Shown here: piece by piece, positions 1 through 57,648 of the stretch | How the letters are laid out: every line of letters starts with the position of its first letter | How positions within the stretch are numbered: the stretch's first letter is position 1 | Assembly: GCA_050084515.1 (NCBI GenBank) | Contig: CM114271.1 | Coordinates: 18,972,001-19,036,000, forward strand | DNA: 64,000 nt | Origin: Blasia pusilla | Taxonomy: Eukaryota | Reading direction: 5' to 3' | Made by a program: the position numbers and the translations under genes | Notes under the pieces: model-generated | What the model was told of the DNA's origin: nothing | The model's input: the letters and a program-made list of their open reading frames with translations, nothing else | The model's database searches: none

Positions 1-3000
1 TATTGTAAGTTGTTGAGCAAGAGAGATGCATGACTATGCCAAGCTAGTGGTTATCGAGAGAATGAAGCATGATCATACTCGTCACTAGATGCATGGCAAC
101 ATATACATAAGAGTGGTGGTCAACATGAGGGCAGACTGTACGATTAATTCAAGACATGAACTTAGAACTTAAGGTTGATTCAGCCTATGTATAAGCAGTC
201 CTTACTTTAAGAGCATCAAATGGTAGGTGCTCTTTAAGGGTATGGATTTGAACATCGTTTAAAAGGTTTGTATAGATCTGCAAGTTTCATATGTCATTCT
301 AAAACTCCCATATTGCATGTGTATGAATGTGACACATAAGAAGATATTAAGATGGGGAGTTGAGATCATACTTCATTATGCGGAAGTTATAGAGGTGCGG
401 CAAGAATAATCAGCAAGCATGGAGGCGAGAACATGTGGTTGTCTAAACAATATTGTGTTTGAGGAATGAAAAACTCCATAACAACAAGTAGAAAAAAGTC
501 TCTAGGAACAACAAGCTCACATATGGATGAGGTGAGAACCTCACCTAACTGAAAATAAAAAGAGTAATATGAAAAAATGATGTTGGTAGTGTGGAAGCAT
601 GCCTTGTGACTTTTTCTTCTTCTTTTTTGGAAACTCTGACGTCTATTGCTCTCATTGTAGGAGGAGCGGGTATTTTTGGTTATAAAATATATGACAATGA
701 GCGTGAAATGCTCGAAAAGACCAAGCCCTAGACCAAAAAGATTAAGAGCTTAACCAAAATAATAGAAAGTGTGAGTTGGCTAAAAGGTAAAGTTGATTGA
801 CATAACACATCACTATATTTTTGTATGTATAAAGTTAATAGAAATAAAATAATAGAAAGTGTGAGTTGGCTAAAAGGTAAAGTTAGACGTTGCAACAATC
901 ATGTGTGCAAAATAAGAGCGGAATGGATTAATTGCAAAAAAATTGTGGCAAACCAAGATCACAAGATTGTCCATCATTGTAGTAGAGTTGTTATTGAGCA
1001 CGCTATAAGTAACTCTAAAATTGAGCATGAGAGCATGAGTGTATGAACAGAGCATTTGATTAAATTGTCAAGAGTATTGGTGAGATCACTAGTCTATGTT
1101 GATCATGAGCTAGTAGTTAAATAGATATTCAATATATAGTAGAGACCTGACTCCGAAGCTTGCTATCAAGCTCTATGTACTCTCTAATTTCCTTGGAGAA
1201 CTCTTTGAACTGAGTCTTGGCAGCCTCTAGCTTTTGAAGAATTTGAACCACATGAGCTAGTTTATCTGCCTTAACACGGCTAGCTTCTTAAGCCACGCCA
1301 AGAAGATCAGTGAGAATGTTAAATTCAATACCAAGCAAAAAAGATTGTTCTTCAGCTTCATCCACTATTGAACTAATAAGGTTGTAATCGCTATGGGAAG
1401 AGTGTTCTCAAAATCTGTACATAGGTCGGTATAAGAAGGTATCTCTTCTTTACCTGAAGTCCAATTTGAGTAGCCCTAGACAACATAAGTATTATGTGAT
1501 TCTTGCAAAATAAAGTGCAAGTGTGATACAAAATAAACAAAAATCAGCTAGAATTGAGTTGTCCTAACCCTAAGTTGAAGGTCATTAGAATCTGCAAAAT
1601 ACAAAGCATTGGTAGGTCAGGTTTAATCTTAGAATATGATGACACAGAAAATGTACATGTTAAATAGAAAAGGAAGAGGATGATGTGCAAGAGTTGGTAC
1701 TACCTGCAAAAAAGTCTACTAGGTGCACTTGCGTTTGCTTACAGACTACAAAGTTAAACCAAAATCCGCAATCTGGGCTTGTGTAACATATGGCAAAGGT
1801 GGAATAGAAGCATGGATTCCAGACTTAGATGAACTAGCTTGATCTTGAGGAGGATTGGATGATAACCTAACAATGTCATCAAAGTCGAGTAGAATAGGAA
1901 AATGGCTAAGAATATTTTCAACATCAATAGGGATAGGCTTAAAGGCCGGTATTTGGCCATTGTCTTGGAGAGTCTTCATTCTTCATTCTATCAATAAGGT
2001 GAGTGCCCTTTTTTAATGTTAAGTCAAGCAATTTGTTAAGTGGTAGATGCAGTCAATGTTGCAAAACACGAAGTTGGTCCACCCTAATACCACCAGAGAT
2101 AAGGTTAAAAAGTCTTATTGCATCTTTTTTTTACGAGGATGGTCTCCTTAAAGTCAACATTCTTGAATTGCAAGACTTCTTTCTAAATGCTTGAGGACAT
2201 GTTAAATCGTGGTGATGATTAGAAATTGAAATTTGGAAGGAGTGGCAATTCATGCTCTAAAGTAATGGTAAGATCATAGAAGAGGTAGAATGTCCCTTGA
2301 TGTTGGTGCATCCTAGCTAATTGAACCTTTTGACCTTCATGTCCCATTGCTCGCCTTGACTTATCAAGCTTTGTATCTGCCTATCAATGACATCGTGTTC
2401 CCAAAATGCACAAACCATTCCAAGGTTATCCATGTATTTGATCTTAACTTCTGTTGGGAAAATAAATCATGGTTTGGATTCTTTTGATTGAGCATGTCAT
2501 ATTGCTTAAAAACTGACCTAACAACTAGCAAACAGGGTCTAGCTATAATCGATCCTTGGATCTCATGAGTTGTCATAGCATACATCTTCGCTCCTCTTAT
2601 ATGATAGACTTGCAATAGGCGATTTTCGGAAAGGGTTTGCTAGGGTTTTCTTGGCCCCATTACGAAGTATTAATAGCATCTAGAGAATTTATTACATATG
2701 GGTGGTAGATGTTAGGGATTTCCTACTTGTTCCAAACAAAATTCTCGTAGGTTGAATAACACCTATAGCTAATTGATGCTTCAAATTTCATGAGTTTCAA
2801 CTGAGTTGAGTTACATTAGACTTGTATTCCCGGATATGGGAGAGAATTCTACACTAGTATTATAGTTTCATGTATCATACAGAAAGGCGAAAAGCTCATA
2901 TGGTGCCTATCTCCCCAATTTCTTTCTTGAGGAAGATGAGTACTCAAGAACTCCCGTATTTAAACGCTCTACGGAGGCTATAAGCATGAAATATATGCAA

Positions 3001-6000
3001 TAGTGCTTGCTTGCTATCGTTTATTACTAAGCAAATCATTCCACGATAGAGAGAGCATCTTGGGCTCTCATGTAGAATAGTTGGAAATGCAAGAAAAATA
3101 TGAGATTTGTCTAGGAGACACTTTCATTTAGGAGTTTGATTCAGATTCTACCACATCCGATTTCCTTTCTAGTTATGTATGCCCCAACATTTGTTCTGAA
3201 GTGTCTCACAATGGGAATAGAACTAACAACGTAGTCTGCCTATTCCATCATAGGCTTCCTCAACTTCTTGAATTCCTTGCTTGGGTCTCGTTTTGAATCG
3301 AAATTAATGAAGCACTGAGGTAGCCAAAGAAATGATTTTTTCCTATCCTAGTAAGATCCCGATTGGTGAAAATTATGTTTTGGCCTTACTTGCACACAAA
3401 TTGCTTCCGTGCATGCCACATAACACAAGAGGTATACAAATTTCCTTTCAAGTACGTTAGTTAGGGGACCAGAGTCCTTTCCAATGGGTTGGCTTAAGAC
3501 TTGTCCAAGGCATTGTTCAACCACAACATGGAGCTAATTTACCAAGGTTGCATGTGGACAAAGTCCGTGTCTGTGGACATGTCCATGGATTTACGGCTTT
3601 CCTAAGGAAGGACTTTTCCATGTGGGCCCACCTCCCCCTTCTTTCTTATCCCCCCATTTACCTCCATGTTTCACACTTTCCTATTTCATCCTTTTCCCAC
3701 CTCCATCCCCTCCCCCCTTATTGCCCCGCTCACCCATGCCTTGCCTTCCACCACGAGCTATAAGTGTGCATCCCACCTCTTGCAATCCATGTCCGTGGAT
3801 ATGTCCATACTTGTCTGTCCATGACCGTCCTGGGGACGAACTTGTTCGTTTTTGTGCAACCATGTAACTTACTATCTGCCTGCTCTAGCCTAATCATAAG
3901 GTTGATTAAGAGGACCAAGTGAATTTTTGGAGGAAGAATATGCGAAAGAGGCAAGCGATGTCAAAATTGCAGCTGAAGTTCCCAAATGCTGCTATCTGCA
4001 TCTTCTAACTTCAAAAGAGTAAAGTGACACAAACTAACAAGATGGGGGAAGGATACACAACGTTCCACCACGTACTTGTGGGAAACTAATTTCCAAGGCA
4101 AACAAGGAGCAAAAACAACAAGCACTAGAAGATATGTTGGGAGAAAGGTAGGGTTACTTGAAGCGTACACTACATAAGGCAACCAAACTACCTCAATCAA
4201 CTAGCTCACTTAAAACGTATGATTGGGAAGAAATCAATTGCAATCTTCTTTCACAACGTTTTAGAGACAAACCACTATCAATGTATTGGCCATACACTCT
4301 CTGCCTTCCTGATTTAACGTAGAACTACGAGAGAAGATCAATACTTGGGGATTTGAGAGAGGGAGATCATATGACAAGGAATTCAAACATTGATGCGTAG
4401 AGCCTATCCAAGATAACCATGTAATGCAATTTGATTGTAGAGTCCTTTAAATTATAGAACTCACCTAGAGGGACGTAAGATGAAACCCAATGTGAGGTAT
4501 ACAAATGAAACAACTCTGGAGTAGAACCGCATATGAAGTCACATCAAGATCACCAAATTCATAAGAAGATCGTAGAAAAGGAAAAGTACATAAGAGCGCA
4601 CTTGAGAAAGAAGTGGAGTAGAGAAACCCAAAACTACAAAACAAGACGACCAAATTGGGAGGAAGGTCGTAGAAGGCACAGCAAGGCTCGAGCAAGAAGG
4701 AAAGAAGAGAAAGTGAAGACAATAAAATAAACAAAGATGGAAAAGCAAGAACAATTCACTACATTCGTCCTAAATTGTGCTAGTAGAGGTTGGGCCCAAG
4801 GATGTGAGTGGGTCGGGAAAGCGTGAGATAGGACCGTCACAGACAACTAAGATTGATTTAGTTGCAATCGCACATTCTTTATGTTGGTAGTTAAGCTTTT
4901 GTTGCTTTATGGATGGATTAGTGCTCATACCAAGAAATTGGCATGAGTAGCATCTATAACACTAATAATGAAGAAAGTGGCGACGTTGGCCCTAGGTCAC
5001 GTTGCATTAGGAGATTTTGCACATGGAATACTAAGGGAAGGTCCCCATAGATCGGACGTATGGGTCATTGGTCTTGGTCCTAGGATTGATCTGACAAACA
5101 CGTTTTGTAAGTTTCAAGCTATTGCACTCAACGGTCAAGCAACATCAACCGGTTCTCTACTCACCAACGAGACAGAGACGACATATATGATTAAAGTTAT
5201 AGGCTACAAGCAATATTATGGCAATTAGAAACCGGTTGGAATGCTTCCAATGACCCTATGATCGTCCTTGCAATTTTTTGCCAAAAATTTCACGGCTTGC
5301 CAAGACCAAAGATTATTTCGTGGTCTTTGCAATCTCAGCCATAGATTCTCAATAACACAACTTCTGTGACCCAATAAGGGTTCCGTGGGGACTTGCCCTA
5401 AAGGAGAAGAAAACTCAAGGAAAAAAAGAAGAATAAATTATCCTAGTCCTAGGTCACATGGTCTTAAGGGATCGGACATGGCGGTTTTCACTATCAATAA
5501 AGTTACGACTCTCCAGAACAAGATATGTGTTGCAATTGTCAACCTCAAAAGCTGCAATATTGAGATACAAAACCAGCAACACAAAGTCACCTTGGATGAG
5601 TATTAATATCGTGTTGCACTTATAGAGGCCATGATTATTTTTTCTCTTTTTGTTTTGGATTTTTATCTTCTCTAATTTAAATTTTAAATTATAATTTTAT
5701 TCATCATACATCATAATTTAAAAATCATGTGTATTAGGTTAGGTTTCATGAATAATTCATCAAGACAAATTTATTTTTTTAAACAAGGGGAAATCACAAA
5801 AATTTAACTCTTAATATTTGACAATAAGAGAAAAAAATAGTTATTTTCAACAAGATATTATTTTCTTTAACAAAAAATAATTTCTTTCCAATAAATCAAG
5901 TAAGATTTTCTAACCATACAAGACTTTCACTCCCATATACATATATATCAATCAAAGAGATGGCTTGCATTAATAAGAAGAATAAGAATCTATACAAAGA

Positions 6001-6199
6001 GAGTCAAGGAGAGAGAATGAAGGAGAGTGTCATCCCTCTATCTCTATACATATTATAAGCTAGGATTAAAAAATATTTGCAATAGAATCCATATAAAGGC
6101 CTATCACCTTATTTTATGTGCTAATATATGCACACATTTTGTATGACCTTTCATTGTAAATATTAATTTACTAGATTACATGAGTTATCTTCAAATTGG

Positions 6200-6830
6200 C
6201 ATAGGTCAACGTTCTCCATCGAGATCAACCATATATCTTTTATATCGAATAGAATTTAATGATATCAAACTTATGTCTAGATAGTATATTAGCGAGGAGA
6301 TAATCCAAATGTTGATATGTGTTTGCATATAAAGCTCTACTTCTCTTTTTCTAAGATTTTATCTCTAATAAAATAATAATATACCTCCATATGCTTTATC
6401 CTCCCATGAAATACTATATTGTTTGCCACATGAATGTTATCTATACTATTAAGAGAGGATGGGGTTAGAATCCCTCCTCCTCCTATTGACACATGTCCTA
6501 CGGGAGCTTTCTTGGTGGTAACACGTGGCAAAAAAAGAATTAAATATAATCAATGAGTGAAAGGGGTGGAAACGTTAGATTTATCTTGACGGATGGAGGT
6601 GCGTACCCAAGTTTTGTGTCACCCGTGCATAGCACGGGCAACGCTCTAGTTGATAATATCCACACATATGAAAAATAGATCTTTGAGCGTTTAGAGCGTT
6701 GCCATGTCAATGTGTGAATTGGTTGTGACGCTTTGAAACGCTCTAAATCTACATCTTTAAGAAGACTTTTCATCCAAACCAATTCACACATTGACATGGT
6801 TGCTTCTTTATATTAATTTTATATACATAA
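6200..6830 (-). mobile_element. Degenerate Ty1/copia RNase H 3' fragment, interrupted by a mini-Helitron
   Basis: Minus-strand peptides MCELVWMKSLLKDVDL and VDIIN|NIHVANNIVFHGRIKHMEVYYYFIRDKI match copia RNase H motifs (CEaxWl; DNxsai..anNPvfHaRtKHie). The frame is continuous once 6440-6649 is removed. Outer bounds approximate. Confidence 0.8.
6440..6649 (+). mobile_element. Non-autonomous mini-Helitron (210 bp)
   Basis: Starts TCTATACTATTAA after A6439. Has a subterminal hairpin CCCGTGC-ATA-GCACGGG (6622-6638) and ends CTAG (6646-6649) before T6650. No TSD; inserted at an A|T site. Confidence 0.9.
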
Positions 6831-8355
6831 AGGATATTTTGACAGACGTGAGTTAGTATCTCTTACCTCATAGCACCCTAAAAAAGATAGGGTTAGTTAA
6901 TTCGTATTTTAGAAGACTTAATGGACTTTATGGGTAACTTGGAGAGTTTGTGACTCTTAAGATTTTCGATGTTGTGGAGCGGGACCAAATACTCGAGAGG
7001 AGGCCTTCACCAATCATGTTGTCTTAGTATCTACGAGTGCATTCCTAAAACTCTAGTATTCAAGAAGTTTCTTACATTTTTTAAATTTTTGGTAGAGATA
7101 CTATCTCCAGATTGCTTATATGATGCGGGGGAATGCCATAGAGAATATGAGGTGGGGAAGGAGCAACAATGGATTTGTGCGCTAATATCAACCAGCTTTG
7201 ATTCATATACCTTCTTGGATTGGCTTGTCAGAGGAGATTACTATTCGAATGATGGTTCCTACAATGAGGGTCAAGAGTAGGAGGACAATTACAACGACAA
7301 TGATATTCGCCTTATAAAATGTTTAGCTACTCTAAGGCAAAGTAGGAGGCCCTTGTTGGATAATACACATAGTGTGGATGTATGAGGCCTATCTAGGCAT
7401 TTACATACAAAAGCATGTGACAACAGAGCCATCGAGGCGGTTATGGGCAGTTAAGCATTGCGAGCAATGGCAATACCCTTTACGACATCTGTATGTATCA
7501 AACCTTATGTAGGTCTAGTGTGCCTTGCAAGTGCAGCACACTATGTGCATGCCAATAGCATTGGTAGCATGTGCAAAAATAGTGTTGATGACCCTACACA
7601 ATTTTTTTGGAAAAATACTATCCATATATGTAAAGATTTGTTCGTTATTGCGTCATTAAGCTCATGTGATTGGAATGTCAAGTTTCTTCAGAGGAAATTT
7701 GGTTGTGAGAAAAAAATTCAAACCTATTTTTTTTTTCTTAAATAGATTGCAAGTTTTGTGCAAGTCTGACTCAATGACTCACAAACTCCATTGCAACTCA
7801 ATTACGAGTCAAAATCGCAATTAGCTTATATTGCAACCGCAACATCACAAAAACTTGCTAGTCTAGTGCAAGTTCTTTGCAAGCCAACTTCAAGCTAATT
7901 TTGACTAGATTGTGAGTAATAAAGCAAAAGTTTTAAATTACTTCAAAGTCATAAATTGGGAGTTGGAGTCTCAATCTTGCAAGTAAGTTGCAAGTGCAAC
8001 ACTCACAATGCTTTCATTGAACTACATATGTATTCCAAATAAGATGTAGCTTTTGTGTCGCGACCCTCATAACCAAACAACACCAAATAGGTGCCAAGCA
8101 GAACACGCTTCCGCAACATTTAATGATTTACGTTCAAGGAGAGTAGGCGCGCGACACTTTGGGACTCACTTAGTCATTTTGAATGTTGTAGTGTTTATCC
8201 CAAATCTTGAATGATTTGCAAGTGTTGGGGAGTGAGAGATTAGGTTAGTATCTGACCCGGTGTAGATCTATTTAGCTTGAAGGATTTGTTTGAATTTTGT
8301 AATGAAAGCTTCTACGACACACAAGATCAAGATTCAAGATACTAGGTGCACAATA

Positions 8356-8685
8356 CCTAAGCCAACTCCACATCCTATATGTGCCTATATGTGACTGACC
8401 TTGATATGGCCAACTTGCAATCATCAAATAAATAACGCCCATTGGGTCTAACTCATGCGCCTCCAATAGTGAAGTATCAATTGGCAAGGAACTCTAGTAA
8501 CCCTATATTGTTGTTGCTAATAATAGATATTGATATTGTAGCCTCAACTAAGCTACATGTTGTAGTAGGACATATCTCACCACCTTATCCCTCTCCACGT
8601 ACCAATATTGTTGTATGCAAAGACATGCTTGAAAACTAACAACCAATCCAATGTTAATCTTGCTAAATAGATCCAATACTCTAAT
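8356..8685 (-). pseudogene. Decayed DNA (cytosine-5)-methyltransferase domain within a retrotransposon polyprotein
   Basis: One minus frame (3 stops) reads IRVLDLFSKINIGLVVSFQACLCIQQYWYVERD...LPIDTSLL...IYLMIASWPYQGQSHIG. These correspond to C5-MTase motif I (vLdLFxGxG), motif II (acidic E/D) and motif IV (dl.iaGwPCQg.S). Removing a 10-nt duplication (cacatatagg x2) extends it to GCGVGL. Confidence 0.8.
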
Positions 8686-9477
8686 ATCCTTCTTTAGATA
8701 TTGCCACCAATCAAATTTGTTGGCTAGGTTAGGAGACTACTAAAAATTTATACTATCAATATCTACCATGGTTTCCAATCTATCACTCCATTAGTAACTT
8801 GGTACTAAATCATATTGATAGTGAATTGACATATTCATCTCCTAACTACCATTCTCAAGCATAGGAGGTTGTCTTCTCTTAGTAATCCAAGGTAAATCAC
8901 ATAGGATACAACATTGCTCTTTCAACCAAAAATATCATAGGACTGCAAATCAATCACTATTGCCTTGGCTTGCACTACCAATCTTTGTGTTAAGTGTTTT
9001 GGATGAAGCCTCACCGCCATCTTTTAATGCACAATAAATTGGGTTGTACTGGCTCTGTCTAATGAGGTCTAAATCCAGAAAGAACATCACTCTATATTAG
9101 CTTAAATTAGGATGAATTCCATAAAATCCACCTTCCATGAGATCAAGGGCTACGCTTTTCCTATTTCATCTAACAAGATGCATTGTATACAATATACTCC
9201 ACCTCCATGACTAACCAAGAGGAAAATATCACTCTAGTTGTGCAACAATACCACTCTATGTATAACCATGGTGAACTCAATAGCGGGTCTAGCTAACATC
9301 TCCGCCAATATTGCAATTGCAACCTACCATGAACAAGTGATAGAAGTCTTGAGCATAGGCTCTAAGAACAAGTCTTCTACCTCTTCAATCACCATTTTCA
9401 AGTAAGAGGCAATAATATTATCCCCACATTCACATAACGTAGTGGTGAGCCGAAACATCTTGGCCAGTCCAAATACC

Positions 9478-9789
9478 TATTGAAGATTGAGTTACAATCA
9501 AGCTCATGAGATACATGAACTGCTATATTTGGTACTCATAGGAAGTAGGGAAGCTTAATTTTGGTTAGTCATTTAAGCACGATTATCTTAACTATGGTTA
9601 GTTAATCACAATTAGTCTAACTCGAGACTATGGTTAAGATTAGAATTAGGGTCGCTTGTACATACCCTACATAATTGAGCAGGGGACCAGCCTCCACTCA
9701 TTCTCTCATTGCAAAATATTATTCTTCATGGTAGTGTGTAAGTGTGAGAGCCGTTTCCACTAGTTATGCTTCTTTAGCAGTCTTCTACA
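9478..9789 (+). repeat. 5' LTR of copia element 1
   Basis: Direct repeat of 13990-14302 and 55955-56367; ends CA immediately before the PBS. Confidence 0.95.
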
Positions 9790-12700
9790 TGGTATCAGAG
9801 CAGTAGGAGAACATCACTTGAAGTTCTTGGTGTTTGAGGAGAGAAGAGAGGCAAGAGAAGGCACAAATTCATTTTGGGAGAAGGAAATTTCCTTTAGAGT
9901 TTAGTGGGTGCAGATTTCATGTGGAGCTTTAATGTGATAAAACTTTTGAGGCATTTTTTAGGGCTTTCCCGGTCGATGAGCCATCTGGGTCCGAATTGGT
10001 TGAAAATGCCAAAGGCTAGGTCTAATCATCTTGTAGGGCTTGTTGAGAGCTTTCCAACGCATCCAAAATCGCTCAATTTTGATATTCTGAGCTCATGCAG
10101 TAGCAATTTCCATGTAGGAAAGTGTAATTAGTGAAGAAAAGTTGTGTAGTTTGGTCTCTACATGCCAATTTCGACTAGTTCTTTCATACAGTTGATCAAT
10201 TTTGGAAAATTTCAGATCGATTTCTCTTTAGGAGTAGTCTATGCTTTAATTGGAGCAGTGATGAGCATGAAATTACGTTTTTATGAGTGAAATTGTTCGT
10301 CATGGAGTATTCCTCAGCAACAATCACATGCGAGAAACTAGATAAGCATAATTATAATGTCTCAAAGTTGCGCATGAAAAAATTTCTCATGGGTCAAGAA
10401 CTTTGGGAGCTTGTCATATGTGATAAGGCCAAGCCAGAAGGTGACTCAATTGACTTGAATGTTCACGCTTGGAACAGACAGAGGCAGAGGGCGTGGTAGA
10501 AGCTTTCGTGGTCGTGGTGGATATCAAACATATGGAGGAAGAGGCACTCAATATAATATCACTCAATCAACTATGAATCAGTACCAGATACAATCACAAT
10601 GTGGTGATGGTGGAAATTGTTGGGATCAAGATCAACAAGAGAAGGTCCCTGGATCTTGTAATTACTGTGGGATAAAGGGTCTCTATGCAAAGTTTTGCTT
10701 CAAGAAGAAGTCAGATTTGAGAATAGGAGCCTTATAGCAACAAAACTATGTATAGCAACAACACCAAGGGCAGTACCATGAACAACAACATTCATAAATT
10801 GAGCATCTTTTGGTCATCACTTATCATATGAGAGCAATGGTCAAGAAAGACTCCACAACAGATTGATATATTGACTCTGGTGCATCAAATCACATGACCT
10901 CACAAGCTTAATGGTTCAGTAGTATGGAGTCGGTGAAAGATCTTGCAATTGTGAACATAGGAGATAACACTCAACATCATATCACGCATATCGATAAAGT
11001 TCCAATAACATCATATAGTCTTTGTGCTATTGGAAATATTCCTTACGTTCCTACCATTGTAAGAAACTTGATCTCTGTATGACAGATAGTAGAACAAGGT
11101 TATCAAGTGAAGTGTAACACATATGGTTGTTAAATTAAAACAATGGATGACCAGACTATGATAGCCAAATGAACTAGATGTGCCAGAATGTTCAAATTAG
11201 ATATTTCTATGCTAGAGATTTAAACATCAATGGTCAAATTGGCCAACAAGTCACAAATCTAAATGTGTGGCATAAGAGAATTGGACATATGAATTTTCAA
11301 AGATTACAGAGTCTTTCATCATTTAATATAGTAATAGGACTTCATAAATTAGCAAGGATTACTACGTTAGAGGTATGTCTTGCTTGCCAATTTGGAAAAC
11401 AAGCTAGATTTCCTTTTCCAAACCAAGGTAGAAGAACATCCAAGATATTGGAGTTGATTCACACTGATGTGTGGACAGCATCACAACATAATCTTAGTGG
11501 TTGCCAGTACTTTGTTTCATTTAGTGATGACTTCTCTAGGTATATATAGGTATACTTTCTGAAAGCCAAGTAAGAGGTATTCTCAGTATTCTAAACATTC
11601 TGAATTCTAGTAGAGAAGTAGACTGGATAACACATTCTGAAATTCCGTTGTGATGGAAGAGGATAGTATCTTTCAACAGAGTTTGATGGCTACTTACGTT
11701 AGAATAGCATCCAACGGGTCAAGTAACTTGTCGTTTCATCCCACAACAAAATAGAGTGGATGAGAGGAAGAATCAACATATTTCTTAGGCGACACGAGCT
11801 ATGCTGAATAAGAAGAACCTACCTAAAATGTATTAGGCAGAGGTTGTAGCGTATGCAGTCTTCTTGATCAACCAAACTCCAACAACACAAGTTCATGATA
11901 AGACTCCATTCGTAATCTTGACAAGAAGTAAACTTGATTTTTCCTTCCTAAAAGTATTTGGTTGTATTTGTTATGCTCATGTTACTTCTGAAAGACGTTA
12001 GAAATTAAACCCTAAATATAAAAGATGTATATTCATTGGCTACGCTGATAGAACTAAGGGGTATAAGTGCTACATTCCATCCTCTAGGCAGCTTATTAAG
12101 TTGCGATGTTATCTTTGATGAGCTAAAGTCATGGTATGCTCCATCTGAGCCTATTCCACCTCTAAAATCGTTTATTGAGGGAAAGAATATGACTGTAAAC
12201 CAAGAGACATTGTCTTCAAATTCCCCAAGTACTAATGCAAGATTATAAGAGATCCTAGATTCGTCAGTTAAATTTGTGAGTCCAAGGACGGGAAGAGTAC
12301 GTATTCAGTCTGTTGACACTAGTCACAGCTTGAGTCACGTGTCAAAGGCATCTACCTCTAAACAACAACTTCGTAGATCAAGTAGAGTCACACATCCTGT
12401 TCATATATTCATAAATGAAGGTTTCCTTGCGATACATCATGCATATATGATGATTACCCTTCAAGAATTGGAGCTGAGTTGTTTTGAAGAAGCTGCAAGT
12501 AAAGTCGAATGGATTGAAGCTATGGAGGAAGAGCTTGTTGCATTAAGATATCAATAGACCTGGGAGTTGGTTGATATACCTTCCCGTAAGAAAGCTATTG
12601 GTTGCAAATGGGTTTACAAAATCAAGCGCAATCAAGATGGTATAGTTAACACATACAAAGCGAGATTGGTGGCTAAGGGCTATGCATAAAAATATGGCAT

Positions 12701-13989
12701 CGAACATGAGGAAATCTTTAGCCCTATTGCAAATATGGCGACTGCAAGAATATTGGTTGTAGTTGTAGTAAGTAAGAAGTGGAGATTACATGACATGGAT
12801 GTCAAGAATGCCTTCTTGAATGGATATCTATATGATGAGGTATATATGACTCAACCAATTCGATATGAGCATCACGAGTTTCCATTTCGCGTATGCAGGC
12901 TGAAGAAAGCTCTATACGAGCTCAAACAAGCTCTAAGAGCTTCATATGGCAAGATAACATACGTCCTACAAGAGTTGGGTTTTAGGGTATGTGATTCTGA
13001 CTCCTTGTTATATGTCTTGAGAGGACAAGATCATACGGTTATCATTGTGTTGTATGTTGACAATGTCTTGATTACTAGGAGTATTGAGGATATGATAGAA
13101 CAAGTCAAGCTAAAATTACAGACTGAATTTGATTTGAAGGACTTGGGAGAACTCAAGTACTTCCTTGGTGTTGAGTTTATCAAGGTTGGAGAGAGCATGG
13201 TTACTACAACGGCAATATGCTCTTCACATGCTTTCAAAATATGGCATGATGGCTTGTAAGCCAATCTCTACATCGTTGGACCAGAGTGTAAAGCTAAGAG
13301 TGGATGAAGGAGAGTTGCTTGCAGATTCTAATATGTAGAGGCGCATGGTTGGAAGTTTGATTTATCTAACTATAACCATGTCAGATTTGAGCTATGCAGT
13401 TGGCCTAGTGAGCCAATTTATGCAAGAAACTCGAAAATCTCACTTGATGCTGTGAGGAGGAATATGCGGTATGTGAAATTATTTGTTCAATAGGGCTTCA
13501 ATTTGAATCTTTTCCGAGTTTACAATTATAGGGATTCACATATGTTGATTGGATAGGAAGCGTGTCTGATCGACACTCCACATTTGGTTATTCATTTACT
13601 TTGGGAAGCTCAGTTATAAGTTGGGCTTCAAAGAAGCAACCTACAGTTGCTTTATCTTCAACAGAGGCTGAATACAAAGGAGCAACTAATGTAGCATGTG
13701 AGGCGGTGTGGCTTCATATTAGTACCTTAGGACCTAGTGTAATATATGCAGATACTATTAGGAGCATCAAGCTTGCTAATAACCCCATGTTTCATGCTCG
13801 TACAAAATATGTTGAGGTGCACTATCGTTTTATGAGAGAGAAAGTGCTTGCAAGAGAAATTGATCTTTTGTATATAGATAAAGATCAGCAAATTGCTGAC
13901 ATCTTTACAAAGGCATTGTCCAGAGATAAGTTTGAGATGTTTAGAAATGATTTAGACGTTAAAGATATCGATATGAGTTTGAGGGGGAG

Positions 13990-14302
13990 TATTCAAGATT
14001 GAGTTACAGTCAAGCGCATGAGACACTTGAACTGCTTTATTTGGTACTCACACAAAGTAGGAAAGTTTAATCTTGGTTAGTCAGTTAAGCGCGATTATCT
14101 TAACTATGGTTAGTTAATCACAGTTAGTTTAACTCGAGACTATGGTTAAGATTAGGGTTAGGATTTCTTGTACATATCTTATATAATTGAGAAGTGGACC
14201 TGCCTCCACTCATTCTCTCATTGCAAATTTTCATTCTCCATGGTGGTGTGTGAGTGTGAGAGCCGTTTTCCATCAGTTATGCTTTTTTAGTAGTTTTCTA
14301 TA
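13990..14302 (+). repeat. 3' LTR of copia element 1
   Basis: Follows the PPT; homologous to 9478-9789; followed by TSD ATACC. Confidence 0.95.
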
Positions 14303-16689
14303 ATACCCCAATGGCAAAATCTCTTATAGCAAAAAAATAGCTTTATAAATGGCTATAGCCACCCTCAATATCTTGTTTGACATTGCTCTTGAATTGTATC
14401 ACAAGCTGTTGATATACTCAAAGTTAGCCTACCTACCTCCTCTTATTCCAAGTCTAACTCCGCGATCGCTCATGTAGTCATATTGCGGTCGCCTACATCT
14501 AGGAAATTCCATTCATCCATATAGGATCCTCTTGATCGCTACCACTAACATAAGATGTAGATGCTATTGATCCAAGGTTAAGAAGTTAGAATGCCATCAT
14601 TGCAATCTCCTAATGTAGTTTCTCTATTTGAGATGTTATCTCAAATTCATGCCCATGTTCTGATATAGTCTTGTTGATGATGTAGTCCTCCACATGACAA
14701 CCATGTGAGCTCTGGTTGTTGCTACCATGCATATGATGGCATGGATCTTTAAAATGCTGGTTCTTTGCACTCCAGGTACGATCACCCTTGAATGTGCGTG
14801 TTGGTTGGCCAACGCATGCTCTATCTCCCTTGGATCATCCATTGCAATGACACCCTTCTCAGTGACCCGTAGCTGAACACGCTCTATCAACAAGAATACT
14901 AAAGTTAGTGTTGGGCTAGTTGAAAACCTAATTGACCACTCTCACACTTGTCTTGTAAGACATGATTGATCATATGAAACTATGCATGGCAAAAATTAAT
15001 TGACGTAAGCACGTATAGGTCTTTCATAAACTCTCGCCAAGTAGACGTTGAAAGTTCTAGATGCTCACTAGCTTCTCATTCCAACCCCACTAAAGCTCCT
15101 CAGTAACTTCTAAAAAAACTTCACAAGCAGGTTGGATGTAGGTCATGTCCTTAAACTAGCTCCGGTCACCCTCTTATCAGCAGCATCCCCAGTCCTCCAT
15201 CCAAGCTATATGAGGTGGCCTTAGCGCCTATTCTAGGCTACACCATGAGCCTAGTCGAGTTCATATAGTACATCTAAACACTAATAGAACCTTCATGCCT
15301 CAGTCTTTATTAGTTGCAAAGCCGAAAACTAATAGGAAATTTTCATAGGTGGATCCTCTAGGTGTTAGAACACCAACCTACAAGAAATGAAAGGGTTGTT
15401 CTCTCGTGCACCTCATGGGCCGTGTGTATCAAACCACAATCCATAATCTATGATGAACTAGTGTAGATCTAAGGTGCCTAGCCCTACTACACATAAGAAT
15501 GGATGTTGTAGGCACCTAAGAGGTATGACAATTTAGGCATGGTGATGATGACATCACCTCTCTTCAACAATTGGAAAATTTTCTCCCCCTTGATGTAAAA
15601 AACTTGACCTCCTTGAAATCTAGCTTGAAATTGACATAGCTCGGAAATTAATGGTAGCATGGTGCAACTACGAGTGTTATGGCATAGCAACAAAGGTACA
15701 ACAAAAATTAGAGTGATATGGAAATAAGAAAAAAAGTATCAAAGTAGAAAAAAAAATTGTACAAAAACAACAAAAGCGATATAGCAACAACGTTATGGCA
15801 TTGTACAACTACAAGCCGCATAATAACAATGGTAACACGATACCACTGTGGGTATCGTAGTATGGCTATATTCAACATCATATGTCCATAAGCAATCAAT
15901 GCAACTTTGACATCTACCTTTGAGAGTGTCATAGTTTCCCAAACTCACTGTTAAGTGTGAACGGTGCAACATGCTATATTGCGACACACTAAGTAAAAAC
16001 CTCCACAATGCATAGCATTTCGCAGTCGGATTATACGTGTCGAGAAAATTCATTGCAAGAAAAATGGAAAACCACTTATCAATGTTGGACTAGAATCTAA
16101 AAAAAATCGACATGACGACTCATCGATAGCATCAAAAAATTTCAATACAACACAACAAATCATTGTGGACAAAAACTAGATGGATCACGAGTAGCATATA
16201 GTGAAATCAAACCCTAAAATTGGACAAGAAACTTGCGTGGGGCAACTTGGAGATCAAGCTGACTCAAGCATGATGCAAGAAAGCATGGGGAAGTGTGGTT
16301 GTTAAGCCATCACGACATGGTGGCACCTAGGGTGGCACGACCACTGCAAGATTAAAACTAAGGTCAACCAACTCAATGGCTAAATAATCAAAGTGATTGC
16401 TATAATTTGTATCTTGCTTGCCTATTTCATGCAGCATTAATTGCATTTCATTCCTAGCTTTGAAGTCTAAAAAGTTGGAACTCTCTGAAAACAACAAAAA
16501 AACTCCTAATCATCAATCATTCACCATCTTGCGACATCCAATCTAACAAAACTTTGGCAACAATTTTGCATAAAAATGTATGATATTAAAAAATAGCTAA
16601 CTAAGCCTTTACAACATTCTCATGGACATGTCTCTAACTGAAAAAAAATGCCAAAACTCCATGCTTATGCTTTAGAGCTTTTGTATGGC

Positions 16690-16882
16690 CTCGTCACCTT
16701 TCTCAATAATTTTCTCTCATTCTCTCCTAAATTTGAAGTAAATTAACACTCTCACATCACAACTCTATCATATGTCAAACCAAACCTACTCTCATAGTAA
16801 GAAGCCTGAAATTTATCTCAAGGCAAGATACGACCATAGCTCTGCCACCTTATGGAAGAAGGCTCAACAAAGAGAGAATGAG

Positions 16883-16914
<32 letters not shown>

Positions 16915-17190
16915 GGTGATCTATGCATATATATTATGCATCTATCCATGACCCTCTATATCAGATAAAAAGGCATATTCTATACAAGGAAGTCAATTTT
17001 CAATAAGTCCCCTAATATTAAAAATAGAAAGTTCCTCCAAATACTCCCAAGTGGACCCTAAGTTAGGGAAAACCTACAAACTTGGGTTCCCTACCCGATC
17101 CACAAGTCATCCTTGGCCTTGCAAGATCAACCCCCGAACTCTTTGGGCACGTCAAGCAACTACTCTATGCTCATATGTAAATGATGCAAT
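16690..17190. repeat. Dispersed LTR-like repeat, family shared with ~51140-51598 and ~57080-57648; contains (CT)13 at 16883-16908
   Basis: Shared blocks aaggcaag..gaccatag, aacaaagagagaat.agctctc, aaaatagaaagttcctc and gtcatcct. Bounds approximate. Confidence 0.65.
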
Positions 17191-19267: not shown

Positions 19268-21501
19268 TTACACATCCACAACAACTTCACTTGGGTCTAA
19301 GGCATTTAAATTTACGCGAACTTCTGGTGGAATTTCTATCTCAGAATATATCTCGGGATTGGCATACACATACCTAAAGTGTCTTTGAATTCTTCCAAAG
19401 AACTCTGATTCAACCAACAAACCTTCATAATCATCTATTTTCCCCTCCAAGGCAATCCTAAGAACAACATCCAAATGCTTTGTCATTAACCTATTCCTAC
19501 TTTTAGTCTTGATCACATTCTTCACAGAGAAAGCTCTCTCACAAATAGCAAAGATTAAACACTGCACCCCTAGCAAAGATTCGCTAAAATGAGCAAGTTA
19601 GAGAACTTACATTGCAAGGACGGGCTCCAACTTACCATAGCCCACAAGTCCTTGAAGTTCCGATCTTTCCACTCCGTCGTGGCCATGAGCTTAAATGATT
19701 GAAACTCTTGTTTCACAGCTCCTACACTCAGTAAAGAAGGTTGCAAGTGACCTTTGAAGGGTAAGTCTGTCCCAAAATGTGCACAGAGGTCATCCAATTC
19801 CTTACAACCCCAACTATTTAGTCCCACTTGCCTTGAAGGCATGTGCAGAGGATTCATTATCCTCATAGCACTAATCAAGTTGTTATCCCTAAACCGATCT
19901 CGTAAAGCTACACAAACACTCTCAGAAAAATTCTTCTGAAACAACAAGGCATCCTCTAGATCCTTTCCTGTCCGATTCCTCAACATTTCTATGCTATGGA
20001 ACTTCTGCCCCTAATCTCAGATTGAAAACGTTTCAAATAACCCCCTGGAGGACCAAAGTCAGATAGAATGTGACTACCACTTTCTTCAGAGAAAGTGGAG
20101 GCATTCAGATCAGGTTCTCCATTACAAAATTCATTGTTATGGAAGCTATTTCAGAAGTCACTATACTACCTATGGTACTAACATCTACAAACTTATATTG
20201 GAACACCTTACTCAAGTTAGCAAGAAGAAACAAAATATCTGCCAAAAAGTACAGCTGATAAATCATCTGAAATGATCTGAGCTTGTTATACAAATTTGCA
20301 GCATTACCATCATCTTTCGAAGGGGAGATATCTCTAAAATATGCAAGGACAGATTCCAGTGAGTCACATAAAGTAGTAATAGCCTGCCAACGCGACAACC
20401 AGCGAATCTTGTGGTACCTCTTCATCACTTTCTGAGAATCGTTCAACTTTTCTCGCAAAGTTGCAAGACCACACTTCCTCTTGGACGACCTTCTAAAGTA
20501 TCCAGCTACTGCATTCAAAATTGAATCTACTTCTATAGATATTTCCTTACACCCTACACCTTTTGCTGATGTTAAAGCAGCGAGATTCGTCCTTTGCGCC
20601 ACACAATGCACAGACAACATAAAAGGATTTATCTTATGTTTCAACTGAGATGCTACTCCATTTTGGCTTCCTACCATAGTAGAAGCTCCATCAGATCCAA
20701 AGGCAACCAATTTTGATCCCTCAAGTCCCGAATCCTTTATCAACTCCAACAAATTTTTAGTGACTGCGTTCGAACATTTCTCTGGACATTGGAGCAATCC
20801 TATAAAACAACTCTCTACTTGCCCCTGATCTAAGTAAGTTGCAAATACAACAAGATGTCCAGTGACAGATATATCTATGGACTTGTCAATCATTATCCCA
20901 AAGAAAGGAGATTGTTGCACTTTAGAAAGGTTCCTCCTGAGAAGAACCTGGCTAATATAAAAACACATATCAGCACAACTTTTTTCATCTTGGTACAAGT
21001 CGCATGTTATAGGTGCATTCACAGATATCAATAACTTACACAGATTTGAGAACTTTGAAAATGGCAGGGCTTCCTTTGCAACGAAATATGCACATTTGAA
21101 CAGAGTCAAAAGTGCAATATCATAAGTCCGATTTGTGGTGGCTATAGCCTTGGCCATGGATCTGTTCCCCACATTCACAGCCCATGCAAGCTTCATGTGC
21201 TCATTCGACTTACCATGATCTGTGAAGGCCGAAACCTTACAGTTAATGGCACCATCCCTGGCAAAGGAGCTTTTCCCTTACCCTGTCTATAGACTTTGCA
21301 AAAAATCCGACCAGATTCTACATGGAATTCTATCCAATCGAACAAAGTATACCAAACATCCTTCCAAGCCAATCTATTTTTCTCACTCTGACTTGTCGGA
21401 TGAGTATTTGATTTGTCCCCTTCTCTCCCATCCGATGATCCTGACCTACTGTTCTCCTCTGCAAGGTCTTGACTAACTTCCTTGTGTAGCATCTCATTCA
21501 T
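19268..21501 (-). pseudogene. hAT transposase (ZNF862-like), frameshifted
   Basis: ORF pieces 21193-21501, 20105-21196, 19570-19986 and 19268-19576. They carry an N-terminal Zn-finger-like W..LFDWI...IFC, catalytic D in FFGIMIDKS, second D in FGSDGASTMVG, CxxH degraded to CVAQ, IRWLSR, and the C-terminal CERAFS..N.IKTK.RNRL motif. Confidence 0.9.
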
Positions 21502-35763: not shown

Positions 35764-38895
<3,132 letters not shown>

Positions 38896-46469: not shown

Positions 46470-48099
<1,630 letters not shown>

Positions 48100-49208
48100 C
48101 AGCTTTCATGTTGGTTAAATACTTGTTTTTTCTAATAGAGCTCTTTGATATTTAATTTGTGCGTAGGTAGCTTTAAAGAACTCTCACCAGCAAGCTTTGC
48201 ACAATTATGTATTCCAACTTTCTTAGGCAAGGCTATTGAATAGCCTCTGATTATGGAGGGCAACTTATCTTCCGGAAGTCTGTGTGATTTAGAATATTTT
48301 TTGTTGAGGTTGCGTGGTCTTTCAGTGGATTTGAAAAAGAAGATATTGCAGAAGAGTAGGCCTTTAGGGATATTTGATCGGATCTTGGCTTTGCCAATCC
48401 TTGTCCGGGTAAGGATTTTACAGTTGATTGATGATTCCAGAGGAAATAACCATGCCAATGGTTGTAGGGTTGGGAAAAGAACATTATTTGACATGGCAGA
48501 GCGTCATTTCTATGTTAGGTTCGTTGATGTTATTCTCCGCCATGATGATAGATATTCTTTACTTGCTTGGATAATGGTCCAGATGGTTGGTAAGGTCACT
48601 ATTCATATATGCCACGATAAGCAAGGAATGGCTATTGGGACATATACTGATGTAAATGTTACAAAATTAGTGTGTTTGTTAGAGTATGCAATTGAGGTCG
48701 GTGGAAAAAGTGTCAAAGTACGTTTAGAGTACAATAACTTTTGGGAAGGGAAAAGTCCAGGAGAGCAAGTTTGCACTCGCTCAAGGAACCAAACTGTTTT
48801 TGGAAGGATATGTTGTACTACTACATGGCAGAGAATTCCAACACCTGATAGGTATTGGTTGTTAGATTAAGCTTGTTAAATGCCATAAAGTAGGATCACA
48901 TTATAGTGGGACCTTTCTTTCATCCTTACTTTCATGGATACTAAAGTTACAATTCTCCCCCGCCCCTTCGACTGAATGGTAATTTTGATTAATGTAACCA
49001 ATTTTCATTAATCAAAATCTTGTGAAATGATCGTGGTTTCTTTGCATATTTGACTTCGGATATGATTTGTGAAGCAACAAGTTTCTTTAGGAGTGTTTGA
49101 ATGTGACTCTCAGGAAAGTAACTTAGATTTTAGTTTTTTTTTCTTAACAGTTTCATGCTCTTCTTTCCTCGAGAGTTTCCAAGAAAGCTAAGGGACTGCC
49201 ATGGATTG

Positions 49209-49374: not shown

Positions 49375-49379
49375 ATAGA

Positions 49380-51139: not shown

Positions 51140-51598
51140 ATCCTTACAATGCTTCTACGAAGTTTTCCTCACCGGCCTATGGATTACACACACAAGGCAA
51201 GCAAGACCATAGCTCGGCCGCCTCATGCCAAGAGGTTCAACAAAAAGAGAATGAGCTCTCAAGCTCTCTCTCCTTGAGGTATACCCCTCCCCTCTCCCAA
51301 GCTCTCTCCATGGTAACCTATGCTCCCAAGTCATCTCCTTGGCTCTTGACCTTATGTAGGAGGTCAAGGGCCACTTACCAAAAATATAAAGTCGACCATA
51401 TACTCAAAATGGTATTTACTTAAAATAGAAAGTTCCTCAATATGGCTCCAAATGAGCTGAAACGAAGGGGAAATCTGTTCTCTCAGGTTTCCCAGGGCCT
51501 CAGCAGGTCATCCTCGACCTCTTGAGCATATGCTCAACTACTCGCGAAGGCGCTCTACTAGATCTCACCGATCTATCCTAAAAGATGTGACACGTGCA
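51140..51598. repeat. LTR-like dispersed repeat, homologous to ~57080-57648 and ~16690-17190
   Basis: Colinear similarity over ~420 bp to 57231-57648, ending ..gtgaca.gtgca. Confidence 0.75.
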
Positions 51599-51599
51599 A

Positions 51600-53597
51600 C
51601 TGATGCAGCGCTCCTTACGCGCATCGATCAGTTGGAGCAGAGGATTGGTACCATGACCATGATGCAGCTACAAGCAGACGCGGAGTTGAGAGTAGCTAGT
51701 GTGGCGCCAACCTCCACATCTTACCAAGATTTTGGTGAGGATTCTGCGGGGATGGGATTTACGTGTAGTGTGGCTCAGGTTGAGGTTGCGGTGGTGAGTT
51801 GAGGTGCTACAAGAGTAGTGGATCCATCGAGAGGTGGGGTGGAGATTGACTCACAGGAGGGGACCGATGGGCGGCAGGCCAAGGTTCCCCGTCGTTCACA
51901 TTGTCGGAGGCACTACATACACCGTCGATGATGTCTGGACGACCGATAGTACCCATGGGTGGGACATGTGTGTCGACGTCACGAGGAGTTGGAGAGATGA
52001 CTCTTATGCCGGCTCGAGTGGAGCAAGTTTTGACCATGTTGTTGGAGGTGGCCACTAGGGTAAGCCACGCTCCGTTGTTTTCCGCCATGGAGTTGGCGAT
52101 ATTGGGAGTTGGACCAGCGGAGGTGTTCCGACTGGCCGCCACATTGTGTGAGCGTGGAGAGGTGGTTGCCTCTCATTTAGAGGTAGTTGAGGAGGTGGTG
52201 GACTTGCCCTCGGAGCAGATGCTCGGAACGTCCCCCATTGAGTCATGGCATGCAGCGGCGGAAAAGTTGGTAGATATGCCAGCTCGACCGCCATAGATCG
52301 AGCGATGATGATACCAGGTGTGGTGTTGTTGGATAACCGAGTAGGAGTGCTTCGCTTGGTTAGTCCCACAAGTACGGTGTACCATCCGCAGCGTGTCCTA
52401 CTTGATTCGGGAGCGCAACCCTTGATGTTAGGGAAGGCGGCGTCTTTGGCTTTGGGTTTACGGAAACGCAACATTGAGCCTTGTCCCTTTGAGATAAAGA
52501 CCTCTATTGGGGGCGTATCACCCACACGTGACTCGATAAGAGTTGGTGGTTAGACTCCAACCAGAGCATGAGTCGGATAGTGCGATGGTGCGCACTCGGG
52601 CGATTACGACACCGGCAGAGTCATGTGATTTGTTGGTAGGGAGTACAATGTTATATCCCCTTGGGTTCATTTTGGATTTTTGGAAGGAGATGATTTCTTA
52701 TCAGCCAAGGTGGCGATCAGATGATGGACGGGTGAGCCATCTACCGGTGCAGTTTGCAAGAGTTAGTGGTGGTCGATCGGGTGAGGATACAGTGACCACA
52801 TTGGAAACATTCACAGGTGGTGTTAGTTGATCAGAGAGTTGTTGGGGAGGAGCACACATGCGGAGGACATTCCCATAGCGGATAGTCCCATGGAGAGATA
52901 TGCCAGGGTGGGTGTCTCTTCCCATGGTGCGGAGTTTGCTTTACCATTGTTGGGTATGGGCAAGGAGTGTAGCCGAGCTCATGAGGCAAGCATGGAGTAG
53001 TGCTTGTGTTTTTGAGCAGACAAAGTCAGGTGACAGTCATGCTCTTGGACTGGAGACTTCATATGTTTGGGTACCACACGTATTGTGTGGTAGCGTTTGG
53101 ATCAGGGTACTAGAGTCTTAGATCTCTTAAGAGGGATCAACACGACGGATAGCTGTAGTGTGGTAGAGTTGCAGGGATGAGAGCACCGATGGTGCTAGAT
53201 GTGTATAGGATAGGAGATCTTATTGGGTATATATGTGTGTGCTATCTAGAGTTAGGGGGACCCAACTGCCAGGTAGGGGGGCGGTTGTGGGATCCCAATG
53301 TATATTCCTGAGTGTATTTCGTTTATGTGTGGATCTACATGTATGTTGGGGAAGATCCGTGTTGTGTGGTGTATAACGATGTGTATGCGTACGACAACTG
53401 TCACATCTTATTTCGGCGTAGGTAGAGTTCTATTGTGTCGAAGGTACAGAGAGTGAGCGGGCTGTTTGGATGTAACTTCGTCTCAAGATGTCCGATGAGA
53501 TTGGCGACAAGTCTGTTATGTTAGAAACATCGTTTATGGCGATTTCACTATTTTGGTTTTAGTCCGTAAGGTGACTCATTGACCGAGTCAACGATCA
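51600..53597 (+). mobile_element. LTR retrotransposon copy B (gag C-terminus, retropepsin protease, start of DNMT), internally deleted, with PPT and putative 3' LTR
   Basis: Protease VLLDSGA (D at 52404) and downstream DLLVG. DNMT motif I remnant RVLDLLRGINT at 53112-53144. Polypurine tract 53271-53284, then TG at 53286 to CA at 53597. Homologous to the minus-strand copy at 8356-15400. Confidence 0.75.
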
Positions 53598-57198: not shown

Positions 57199-57648
57199 AA
57201 ACCAAATCCATTCTCCTAATGAGAGGCTTGGGTTACACACACAAGGCAAGGAGGACCATAGTTCCGCCGCCTCATGCCAAGAGGTTCAACAAAGAGAGAA
57301 TAAGCTCTCAAGCTCTCTCTCTTGGAGGTATACCCCCTTTCCTCTCCCAAGCCCTCTCCACGGTAACCTATGCTTGCAAGTCACCTCCTTGGCTCTTGAC
57401 CTGCTATATCCGGTCAAGAAACACTTCTCAAAGTGGAAAGTCAACCATACTACAAATGGAAACTTACCCAAAATAGTAAGTTTCTTTATATGGCTCCAAA
57501 TAAGCCGAAACAAAGGGGAAACCTGATCTCTCATATTACCCGTGGCCTCAGCAGGTCATCCTTGACCTCATAAGGTTGTCCTCCACTATCTCTAAAGGCA
57601 CTCTACTAGATCTCGTTGATCTATCCTAACAAACGTGACAAGTGCATC
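57080..57648. repeat. LTR-like dispersed repeat with (TC)21 at 57154-57195
   Basis: Homologous to 51140-51598 and 16690-17190; may extend left towards 56368. Confidence 0.7.

Follow-up and report, generated by a model that had tools for sequence, protein, structure and literature searches.

Apparent relics of a DNMT3-bearing LTR retrotransposon family in the genome of Blasia pusilla

DNA methyltransferase (DNMT) domains are known as components of certain retrotransposons. De Mendoza 2018 (PMC5890265) describes KnitGypsy-Dnmt3, a gypsy element of Klebsormidium nitens with DNMT3 domains in its Pol open reading frame (ORF), and also DIRS and LINE elements of Symbiodinium that carry DNMTs, for which independent acquisition is argued. 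The same paper reports that SymbioDIRS-Dnmt3 methylates CG de novo in yeast, leaves the role of the domains open while considering evasion, self-limitation or methylation of cDNA, and in a figure legend ascribes DIRS-like repeats to the K. nitens elements. A 2026 preprint (10.64898/2026.05.21.726589) uses the term 'streptophytes (Gypsy-DNMT3)', and Sarre 2025 terms the streptophyte case 'LTR Copia'. Here we describe a stretch of 64,000 nucleotides from Blasia pusilla (the window; assembly GCA_050084515.1, contig CM114271.1, positions 18,972,001 to 19,036,000), in which an earlier note had proposed a long terminal repeat (LTR) retrotransposon carrying its own DNMT domain right after the protease. 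That note also cited DNMT capture by dinoflagellate and charophyte retrotransposons, which agrees with PMC5890265.

The segment at 8275-9473 on the minus strand of the window (copy 1) is most probably what is left of an LTR retrotransposon, truncated and dead, from a family in which a DNMT3-type methyltransferase lies between the aspartic protease (PR) and the reverse transcriptase (RT), RNase H (RH) and integrase (IN). Taken together with another fragment, copy 2, which lies on the plus strand, the window is, as judged by sequence homology, the site of two dead fragments of this family. The evidence from relatives supports a predicted family layout equal to the Ty3/gypsy order plus one extra domain.

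This family joins the known streptophyte Gypsy-DNMT3 kind and widens its taxon range. Like KnitGypsy-Dnmt3, it is an LTR element with gypsy-type domains whose Pol polyprotein includes an unrearranged DNMT3-type domain. It differs in that it occurs beside plant-type transposons, a liverwort supplies its closest named relatives, and its window copies are dead fragments; the relic is also only weakly similar to the K. nitens protein that we collected (P0089; relatives are designated by P numbers). The DIRS-like repeats that the figure legend gives for KnitGypsy-Dnmt3 also contrast with the plain repeat pair of a family element at a metagenome locus (L001, below). SymbioDIRS-Dnmt3 and SymbioLINE-Dnmt are likewise retrotransposon-borne C5 methyltransferases, and by their description they are set apart from the family in backbone (DIRS, LINE) and host lineage.

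The methyltransferase relic and its enzyme class

On the minus strand, from 8685 to about 8383, a single frame reads IRVLDLFSKINIGL...QYWYVERD...LPIDTSLL...LMIASWPYQGQSHIG, the peptide that had been quoted in the earlier note, and it is broken by three TAG stops (Table 1). In the one-frame read-through of 8272-8736 on the same strand, the interrupted part appears as ...WWQYLKKDIRVLDLFSKINIGLVVSFQACLCIQQYWYVERDKVVRYVLLQHVA, stop, LRLQYQYLLLATTI, stop, GY, stop, SSLPIDTSLLEAHELDPMGVIYLMIASWPYQGQSHIG.... The assignment of this peptide to C5 methyltransferase motifs I, II and IV, in that order, is borne out by the relatives' alignment and profile described below. In motif I, the glycine-rich loop (FxGxG) that binds S-adenosylmethionine (SAM) is not intact, with LFSKINIG in the relic for LFGGIxTG in the family, such that two glycines have become Ser and Lys. 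In motif IV, the Pro-Cys is not kept either, and a Tyr occupies the position of the catalytic Cys (codon 8404-8406; WPYQG in the relic, WPCQG in the family). The CGVGL string, which had been placed in the same frame, is indeed present as part of a GCGVGL stretch that fits the family's GxGQGL, but it is read in the next frame owing to the frameshift that a 10-bp tandem duplication introduces at 8374-8393.

When the 275-residue read-through of 8272-9096 (minus strand) was compared by phmmer with 1.84 billion cluster representatives, 45 proteins matched at E<=1e-3, six of them at E<=1e-10, and all 45 matches fall on query residues 87-242, which correspond to the claimed methyltransferase stretch. 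Fifteen of the matched proteins were scanned with Pfam; PF00145 (DNA_methylase) scores above its gathering score in 11, and four have no methylase hit. The methyltransferase domains of six relatives were used for an alignment and hidden Markov model (HMM) of 343 positions, hereafter A1. Applied to the six-frame translation of the window, A1 yields a sole match, at 8389-8706 on the minus strand (77.3 bits, HMM positions 5-110), and its best score in 10 shuffled windows is 2.0 bits. Similarity found by tblastn with some relatives spans 8790-8275 and so reaches beyond the HMM match, and in a MAFFT alignment the relic follows 18 relatives collinearly across motifs I, II and IV.

The domain of copy 1 comprises these three motifs and approximately 35 further residues, and then ends. 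HMM positions 111-343, with motifs VI, VIII, IX and X, find no match anywhere in the window, and the relatives continue past motif IV with ENV, an xAHRxR motif and a C-terminal ERERxMG...G.A.DV block that the relic does not have. Homology of the relic to C5 methyltransferases is, at the level of sequence comparison, visible solely via intermediate relatives or their profile. The DNA_methylase profile check proposed in the earlier note consequently has two sides, with no match for the read-through itself at E<=10 and matches above the gathering score for most of the scanned relatives.

All of the key residues cited in the earlier note are substituted, and the relic has no direct Pfam or PDB match; both facts would suit decayed AT-rich DNA that resembles methyltransferase motifs by chance, or an integrase zinc finger that had been misread. 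We find such an account scarcely credible given 77.3 bits for the family HMM versus at most 2.0 bits in the 10 shuffles, six matches at E<=1e-10 from so large a protein set, and an alignment that stays collinear for about 105 HMM positions. We separately considered whether the peptide is a gypsy integrase zinc finger (WW..KKDI...C..C) in decay, an identity that the DNMT-family alignment rules out.

Note that the class of the enzyme was assigned with the family profile A1 against PDB sequences, and not with the relic alone. Among the best 60 of 66 matches, DNMT3C, DNMT3B and DNMT3A are closest (5e-26 to about 1e-22), and DNMT3 chains (8tci, 6kda, 2qrv and others) cover profile positions 9-235 and 260-328. 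Within the same 60, plant DRM and DRM2 (7l4c, 4onj) match at 9e-12 to 3e-10 over profile positions 9-139, DNMT2, M.HhaI and M.HaeIII match at 1e-6 or weaker, and there is no DNMT1 or CMT chain. Because A1 fits DNMT3 best, and fits DRM only in the C-terminal half as for a permuted enzyme, the family appears to be DNMT3-like and not rearranged, which upholds the term 'DNMT3-like' used in the earlier note.

The motif order I to X is common to the family and animal DNMT3A, DNMT3B and DNMT3C. Unlike the animal enzymes, the domain borne by the transposable element (TE) is without an ADD or PWWP module and sits in a retroelement polyprotein, and the window relic has only motifs I-IV left, with the catalytic residues gone. 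Plant DRM2, a de novo methyltransferase derived from DNMT3, shares profile similarity with the family; however, the DRM motifs are circularly permuted, with the match located at DRM residues 225-352 in the C-terminal half, whereas those of the family are not rearranged.

A 79-nt inverted match (8196-8272 versus 32168-32246, 75% identity) begins exactly where the DNMT-family homology of copy 1 stops, and it may mark the border of a different repeat by which the element was cut short. About 1.7 kb past this truncated end, at 6337-6549 on the minus strand, there is a short fragment that resembles copia RNase H (...VFHGRIKHMEVYYYFIRDKILEKEK).

Table 1. Coordinates of the family copies and associated repeats in the window, and of the parts of metagenome locus L001 (numbered on its own contig).
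Feature	Position	Strand	Evidence or description
Copy 1: remnant of a DNMT3-type C5 cytosine methyltransferase domain (N-terminal third)	8275..8790	-	phmmer, tblastn with relatives, A1 HMM
Copy 1: motif I, SAM-binding loop	8644..8676	-	relic LDLFSKINIGL, family LDLFGGIxTGL
Copy 1: motif II region	8587..8607	-	relic YWYVERD, family YVYVExD
Copy 1: motif IV	8395..8415	-	relic SWPYQGQ(S), family GWPCQGH(S)
Copy 1: three in-frame TAG stops within the domain	8548-8550, 8503-8505, 8494-8496	-	Gln or Arg/Gln at those alignment columns in the nearest relatives
Copy 1: perfect 10-bp tandem duplication	8374..8393	-	CACATATAGG x2; frame shift just past motif IV
Copy 1: decayed retropepsin-like aspartic-protease region and upstream leader	8892..9473	-	P0023 residues 3-193, E=1e-21
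Nested Ty1/copia element	9478..14302	+	LTRs ~9478-9789 and 13990-14302
Copy 2: leader and protease region of related element	52012..52851	+	P0023 residues 6-254, E=9e-31; P0115, 2e-29
Copy 2: very start of DNMT domain	53067..53144	+	tblastn of P0009, P0015; RVLDLLRGINT from 53112
Candidate 5' LTR of copy 2	51180..51598	+	419 nt, TG...CA, 82% identical to 57229-57646
Candidate 3' LTR partner	57229..57646	+	partner of 51180-51598
L001 PR	7345-7755	same as other L001 parts	
L001 DNMT	7851-8971	same as other L001 parts	
L001 RVT_1	about 9627-10026	same as other L001 parts	
L001 RNase H	about 10215-10500	same as other L001 parts	
L001 Integrase_H2C2	about 11047-11155	same as other L001 parts	
L001 rve	about 11217-11472	same as other L001 parts	
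L001 direct repeats	2772-3042 and 12597-12874		81% identity, about 280 nt, 9.8 kb apart

Protease linkage and the domain order of the family

The protease region of copy 1 is contiguous with the methyltransferase relic, on its upstream side, and contains several stops and frame changes. A decayed aspartic protease with an ILLD string had been reported here, and the string was found where expected, at about 9168-9180 on the minus strand, with the Asp of the ILLD/LLD... motif encoded by codon 9168-9170. Because residues 3-193 of P0023 from Calypogeia fissa match 9473-8892 on this strand at E=1e-21, we consider the region of protease plus leader to be real, and further relatives also match it by tblastn.

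At its 5' side, copy 1 is interrupted by a nested Ty1/copia element with LTRs of about 310 nt that are 87% identical, a target-site duplication ATACC at 9473-9477 and 14303-14307, a primer-binding site of tRNA-Met type (TGGTATCAGAGC), and a polypurine tract preceding the 3' LTR. Because the copia element inserted here and severed the upstream part, the copy 1 element must be the older of the two. The gag, integrase, RT and RNase H ORFs of the nested element are in broken pieces.

Among the collected relatives, P0018 has a gag-type aspartic protease (residues 92-189) that passes both Pfam protease cut-offs, followed by DNA_methylase (416-498). The Pfam protease families are slightly under cut-off (20-22 bits versus 24-28) in P0113, P0114, P0108, P0124 and P0127. 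The 1775-aa protein P0030 presents a CCHC knuckle, then a protease region, and then a complete methyltransferase domain. Downstream domains are found in Closterium proteins, wherein DNA_methylase is followed by RVT_1 and then RT_RNaseH (P0044), or by RT_RNaseH (P0014), and P0046 has in addition an integrase zinc finger downstream of the DNMT domain.

Protease, DNMT, RT, RNase H and integrase parts follow one another on one strand of L001, a metagenome locus recovered by a contig scan (Table 1). The locus is AT-rich (GC 38.5%, similar to the window background) and has no ORF of at least 150 aa. Its interval 2772-12874 reads as a decayed element of about 10 kb with the order LTR-gag?-PR-DNMT-RT-RH-IN-LTR, wherein the frame upstream of the protease includes a decayed CCHC-like string. 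A second metagenome locus, L002, was also noted, with 27% identity.

On the evidence of L001, the Closterium proteins, P0018 and P0030, the predicted position of the DNMT3-type domain in this family is inside the Pol of a gypsy-type element. The gag-PR-DNMT-RT-RH-IN order predicted in the earlier note is therefore displayed by L001, with gag as a candidate part, although of the canonical Pol domains only the protease survives in the window, where the PR-DNMT junction is all that the family copies show. Because the RT, RNase H and integrase of the family have not survived there, the term 'gypsy-type' is applied to the window copies by bracketing.

The frequency of the fusion was assessed using 139 collected proteins, all of which match the A1 HMM. 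Twenty-nine are informative in that the beginning of the domain is present and is preceded by 200 aa or more, and a P0023-type protease homologue precedes the DNMT domain within the same predicted protein in 17. The consistent fusion downstream of the protease that the earlier note envisaged is thus seen in these 17 relatives, but no protease is visible in the other 12.

Copy 2 offers a second instance of the arrangement. By tblastn, P0023 residues 6-254 map to 52117-52851 on the plus strand, with a protease motif, LLDSGAQP at 52398-52421, that looks intact. The start of the DNMT domain that follows is weak because the A1 HMM gives 53067-53144 just -1.5 bits. Family homology stops after this point, and a 5'-truncated copia is present from about 53583 on the plus strand. 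This copia (about 53583-56760) is of the same kind as the nested one, begins inside the integrase C-terminus, adjoins the end of copy 2, and carries RVT_2, an SH3-like domain and an apparent 3' LTR.

A 419-nt repeat occurs as a pair whose two members are spaced 6048 nt apart, and the first member precedes copy 2 by about 420 nt. It is plausible that this repeat belongs to the DNMT element of copy 2, and we regard the pair as a candidate link. A third, partial copy is located at 16819-17119 on the plus strand; it is all that a comparison of the repeat with the flanks of copy 1 gave, its orientation is wrong for copy 1, and no LTR of copy 1 was found. Just upstream of the 419-nt repeat, at about 49400-51000 on the plus strand, are remains of a CACTA/En-Spm-type transposase (Transposase_21 in two frames, and Transpos_assoc), and long (GA/CT)n microsatellites occur at about 47709-48098 and 57100-57220.

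The recurrence of the arrangement bears on whether copy 1 might instead be a host DNMT3-like pseudogene, or a host fragment captured by another transposon, that by accident lies beside an unrelated protease relic. Non-seed plants retain host DNMT3 genes, the family profile is nearest to DNMT3, and copy 1 is without LTR, RT or integrase, all of which are in keeping with such an origin. We nevertheless judge it very improbable, since protease followed by DNMT occurs twice in the window in copies that are just 63% identical, recurs within single predicted proteins of 17 informative relatives out of 29 and in L001, and the best matches are TE-linked proteins and not annotated host DNMT3.

Several observations count against the interpretation of the window copies as fragments of a DNMT3-bearing gypsy-type family. 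The relic itself is poorly visible to direct searches: hmmscan (E<=10) of 8272-9600, read through on the minus strand in all three frames, gives no Pfam DNA_methylase, phmmer against all PDB chains (including DNMT1, DNMT3, DRM2 and HhaI) gives no DNMT and two chance hits, and both tblastn against 50,697 phage records and a word-indexed search among longer proteins give nothing. Nothing in the window can be attributed to copy 1 as its gag, RT, RNase H, integrase or LTR, and its continuation beyond the nested copia went undetected (best tblastn E of 0.86; local DNA alignment score of 28 versus a shuffle mean of 26). A similarity noted by eye immediately at the junction was not reproduced by tblastn and was discarded. 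The candidate LTR pair of copy 2 is without a recognizable target-site duplication, primer-binding site or polypurine tract, and it also encloses the copia fragment.

The relatives contribute further points of this kind. The 12 informative relatives without a protease in their available upstream sequence mostly have just 230-300 upstream residues, and in their clade (for example P0048, P0050 and P0052) the protease lies about 350 or more residues ahead of the domain. The run-assembled record P0043 (1230 aa) has an N-terminal DNMT domain followed by an RT/RNase H-like region with no RVT_1 at E<=0.01, and the family backbone may not be uniform because the RT after the DNMT of P0043 looks different. 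Finally, the tree described below is without support values and has an arbitrary root (the three weakest PF00145 hits).

Searches of the window for the missing parts agree with these negatives. Pfam scans of the minus strand at 1-24000 and the plus strand at 48001-58500 reveal only copia, CACTA and hAT domains, with no methylase and no gypsy-family RT or integrase; the minus-strand scan gives a hAT DUF4371 hit alone. Likewise, tblastn of the Closterium proteins and of the translated RT-IN region of L001 against the window gives nothing, and a gag with a CCHC zinc knuckle was not found in the window.

With neither RT nor integrase surviving in the window, the PR-DNMT unit might reside on a backbone other than Ty3/gypsy, such as a DIRS-like or mixed repeat structure. 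P0043 could represent such a backbone, and the figure legend of PMC5890265 on DIRS-like repeats in K. nitens elements and the 'LTR Copia' wording of Sarre 2025 point the same way. We consider this improbable. Gypsy-type RVT_1, RT_RNaseH, Integrase_H2C2 and rve follow the DNMT domain in the Closterium relatives and L001, the direct repeats of L001 are a simple pair, and in the tree the window clade adjoins the Closterium clade and lies away from P0043.

Taxonomic range and possible role

Two relatives, P0001 and P0023, are from the leafy liverwort Calypogeia fissa, wherein they reside on contigs of 41.7 and 46.8 Mb. Both keep LLDSGAQP, LDLFGGINTGL and GWPCQG and are stop-free over the modelled parts. 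P0014, P0044 and P0046 are from Closterium sp. NIES-53 and NIES-54, and P0089 is KFL_005250035 of Klebsormidium nitens, which matches A1 at E=6.7e-66 and is 49% identical to P0022-type sequences. The pairwise match between the relic and P0089 is weak (E=0.002) and covers motif I only. The remaining relatives that were looked up are environmental or run-assembled records.

A FastTree phylogeny of 68 sequences and 98 columns, from which a 69th row (K. nitens P0089) was dropped for coverage, was read for nearest neighbours only. The relic groups with P0004, then with Calypogeia P0001, then with P0002 and P0003, and Closterium sequences are nearby. The P0022-type sequences form a clade apart from that of the window.

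Our search of the full-text literature, whose coverage stops short of the PMC5890265 supplements and most subscription journals, returned no report of a DNMT-bearing retrotransposon from a land plant or from Zygnematophyceae. The data suggest a broader distribution of the gypsy-DNMT3 lineage among streptophytes than has been published, one that seems to reach land plants. Whether DNMT3-bearing gypsy elements were carried or moved into land plants, at least into leafy liverworts, with some copies possibly intact and active, is a proposal that we advance tentatively and hold to be on the doubtful side. If it were true, a de novo DNA methyltransferase encoded by a transposon would be at work in an embryophyte genome beside the host DNMT3, DRM and CMT enzymes.

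In intact members of the family, the protease would release the methyltransferase from Pol, and the released enzyme would act de novo on the cDNA of the element or its new insertion, or on nearby host DNA. Methylation of the element's own cDNA is a speculative role, here as in PMC5890265. Plants silence transposons chiefly through cytosine methylation, and because of this a transposon with its own de novo methyltransferase would invert the silencing relationship. The interest of the locus rests on the presence of the family in a land-plant lineage and not on the window fossil. It raises the questions of whether the capture was ancient and inherited vertically across the water-to-land transition, whether intact copies survive in bryophytes, and whether they influence host methylation patterns.

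Decay of the copies and other features of the window

Copy 1 has a GC content of 37.3% and a CpG observed/expected ratio of 0.25, and the corresponding values for copy 2 are 51.2% and 0.71. Over 588 aligned nt, the two copies share 63% nucleotide identity. A G or C in copy 2 is replaced by its transition-partner A or T in copy 1 at 84 sites and the reverse is seen at 40, alongside 94 transversions. The substitutions at the catalytic Cys, at the motif I glycines and at the TAG stops (Gln/Arg columns in near relatives) are also of the transition kind.

Deamination of methylated DNA, to which the earlier note had attributed the damage, is partly supported as the cause of decay. The excess of 84 over 40 and the transition-type key changes give it directional support and are compatible with it, whereas the transversions are not of that kind, and the two copies are too divergent for rigorous polarization. 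Copy 1 cannot work because it combines stop codons, the Tyr substitution, lost glycines and a frameshift with the loss of motifs VI-X, RT, RNase H and integrase, and with the copia insertion. On this reading of its sequence, it is a dead fossil with no function of its own.

The earlier note had also named HVA22 and expansin as host genes of this region. An exon-like stretch at about 36600-36750 on the plus strand has a motif that we take to be typical of HVA22/TB2/DP1 proteins, in line with the first of these, but a search of the window with expansin motifs gave nothing convincing. The HVA22-like exon, the CACTA and hAT remains and the liverwort origin of the closest named relatives are the signs of a land-plant host in these data.

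Among public sequencing runs, three DNA runs contain part of the stretch and no RNA run is listed for it. The repeats of the window include plant-type CACTA, hAT and copia elements. A 390-aa open frame at 20108-21277 on the minus strand matches DUF4371 at E=6.5e-6, below cut-off, with a C17orf113-type zinc finger nearby, and its predicted product looks like a hAT-like transposase. The longest open frame of the window (473 aa) lies at 25111-26529 on the minus strand, in a region of higher GC.

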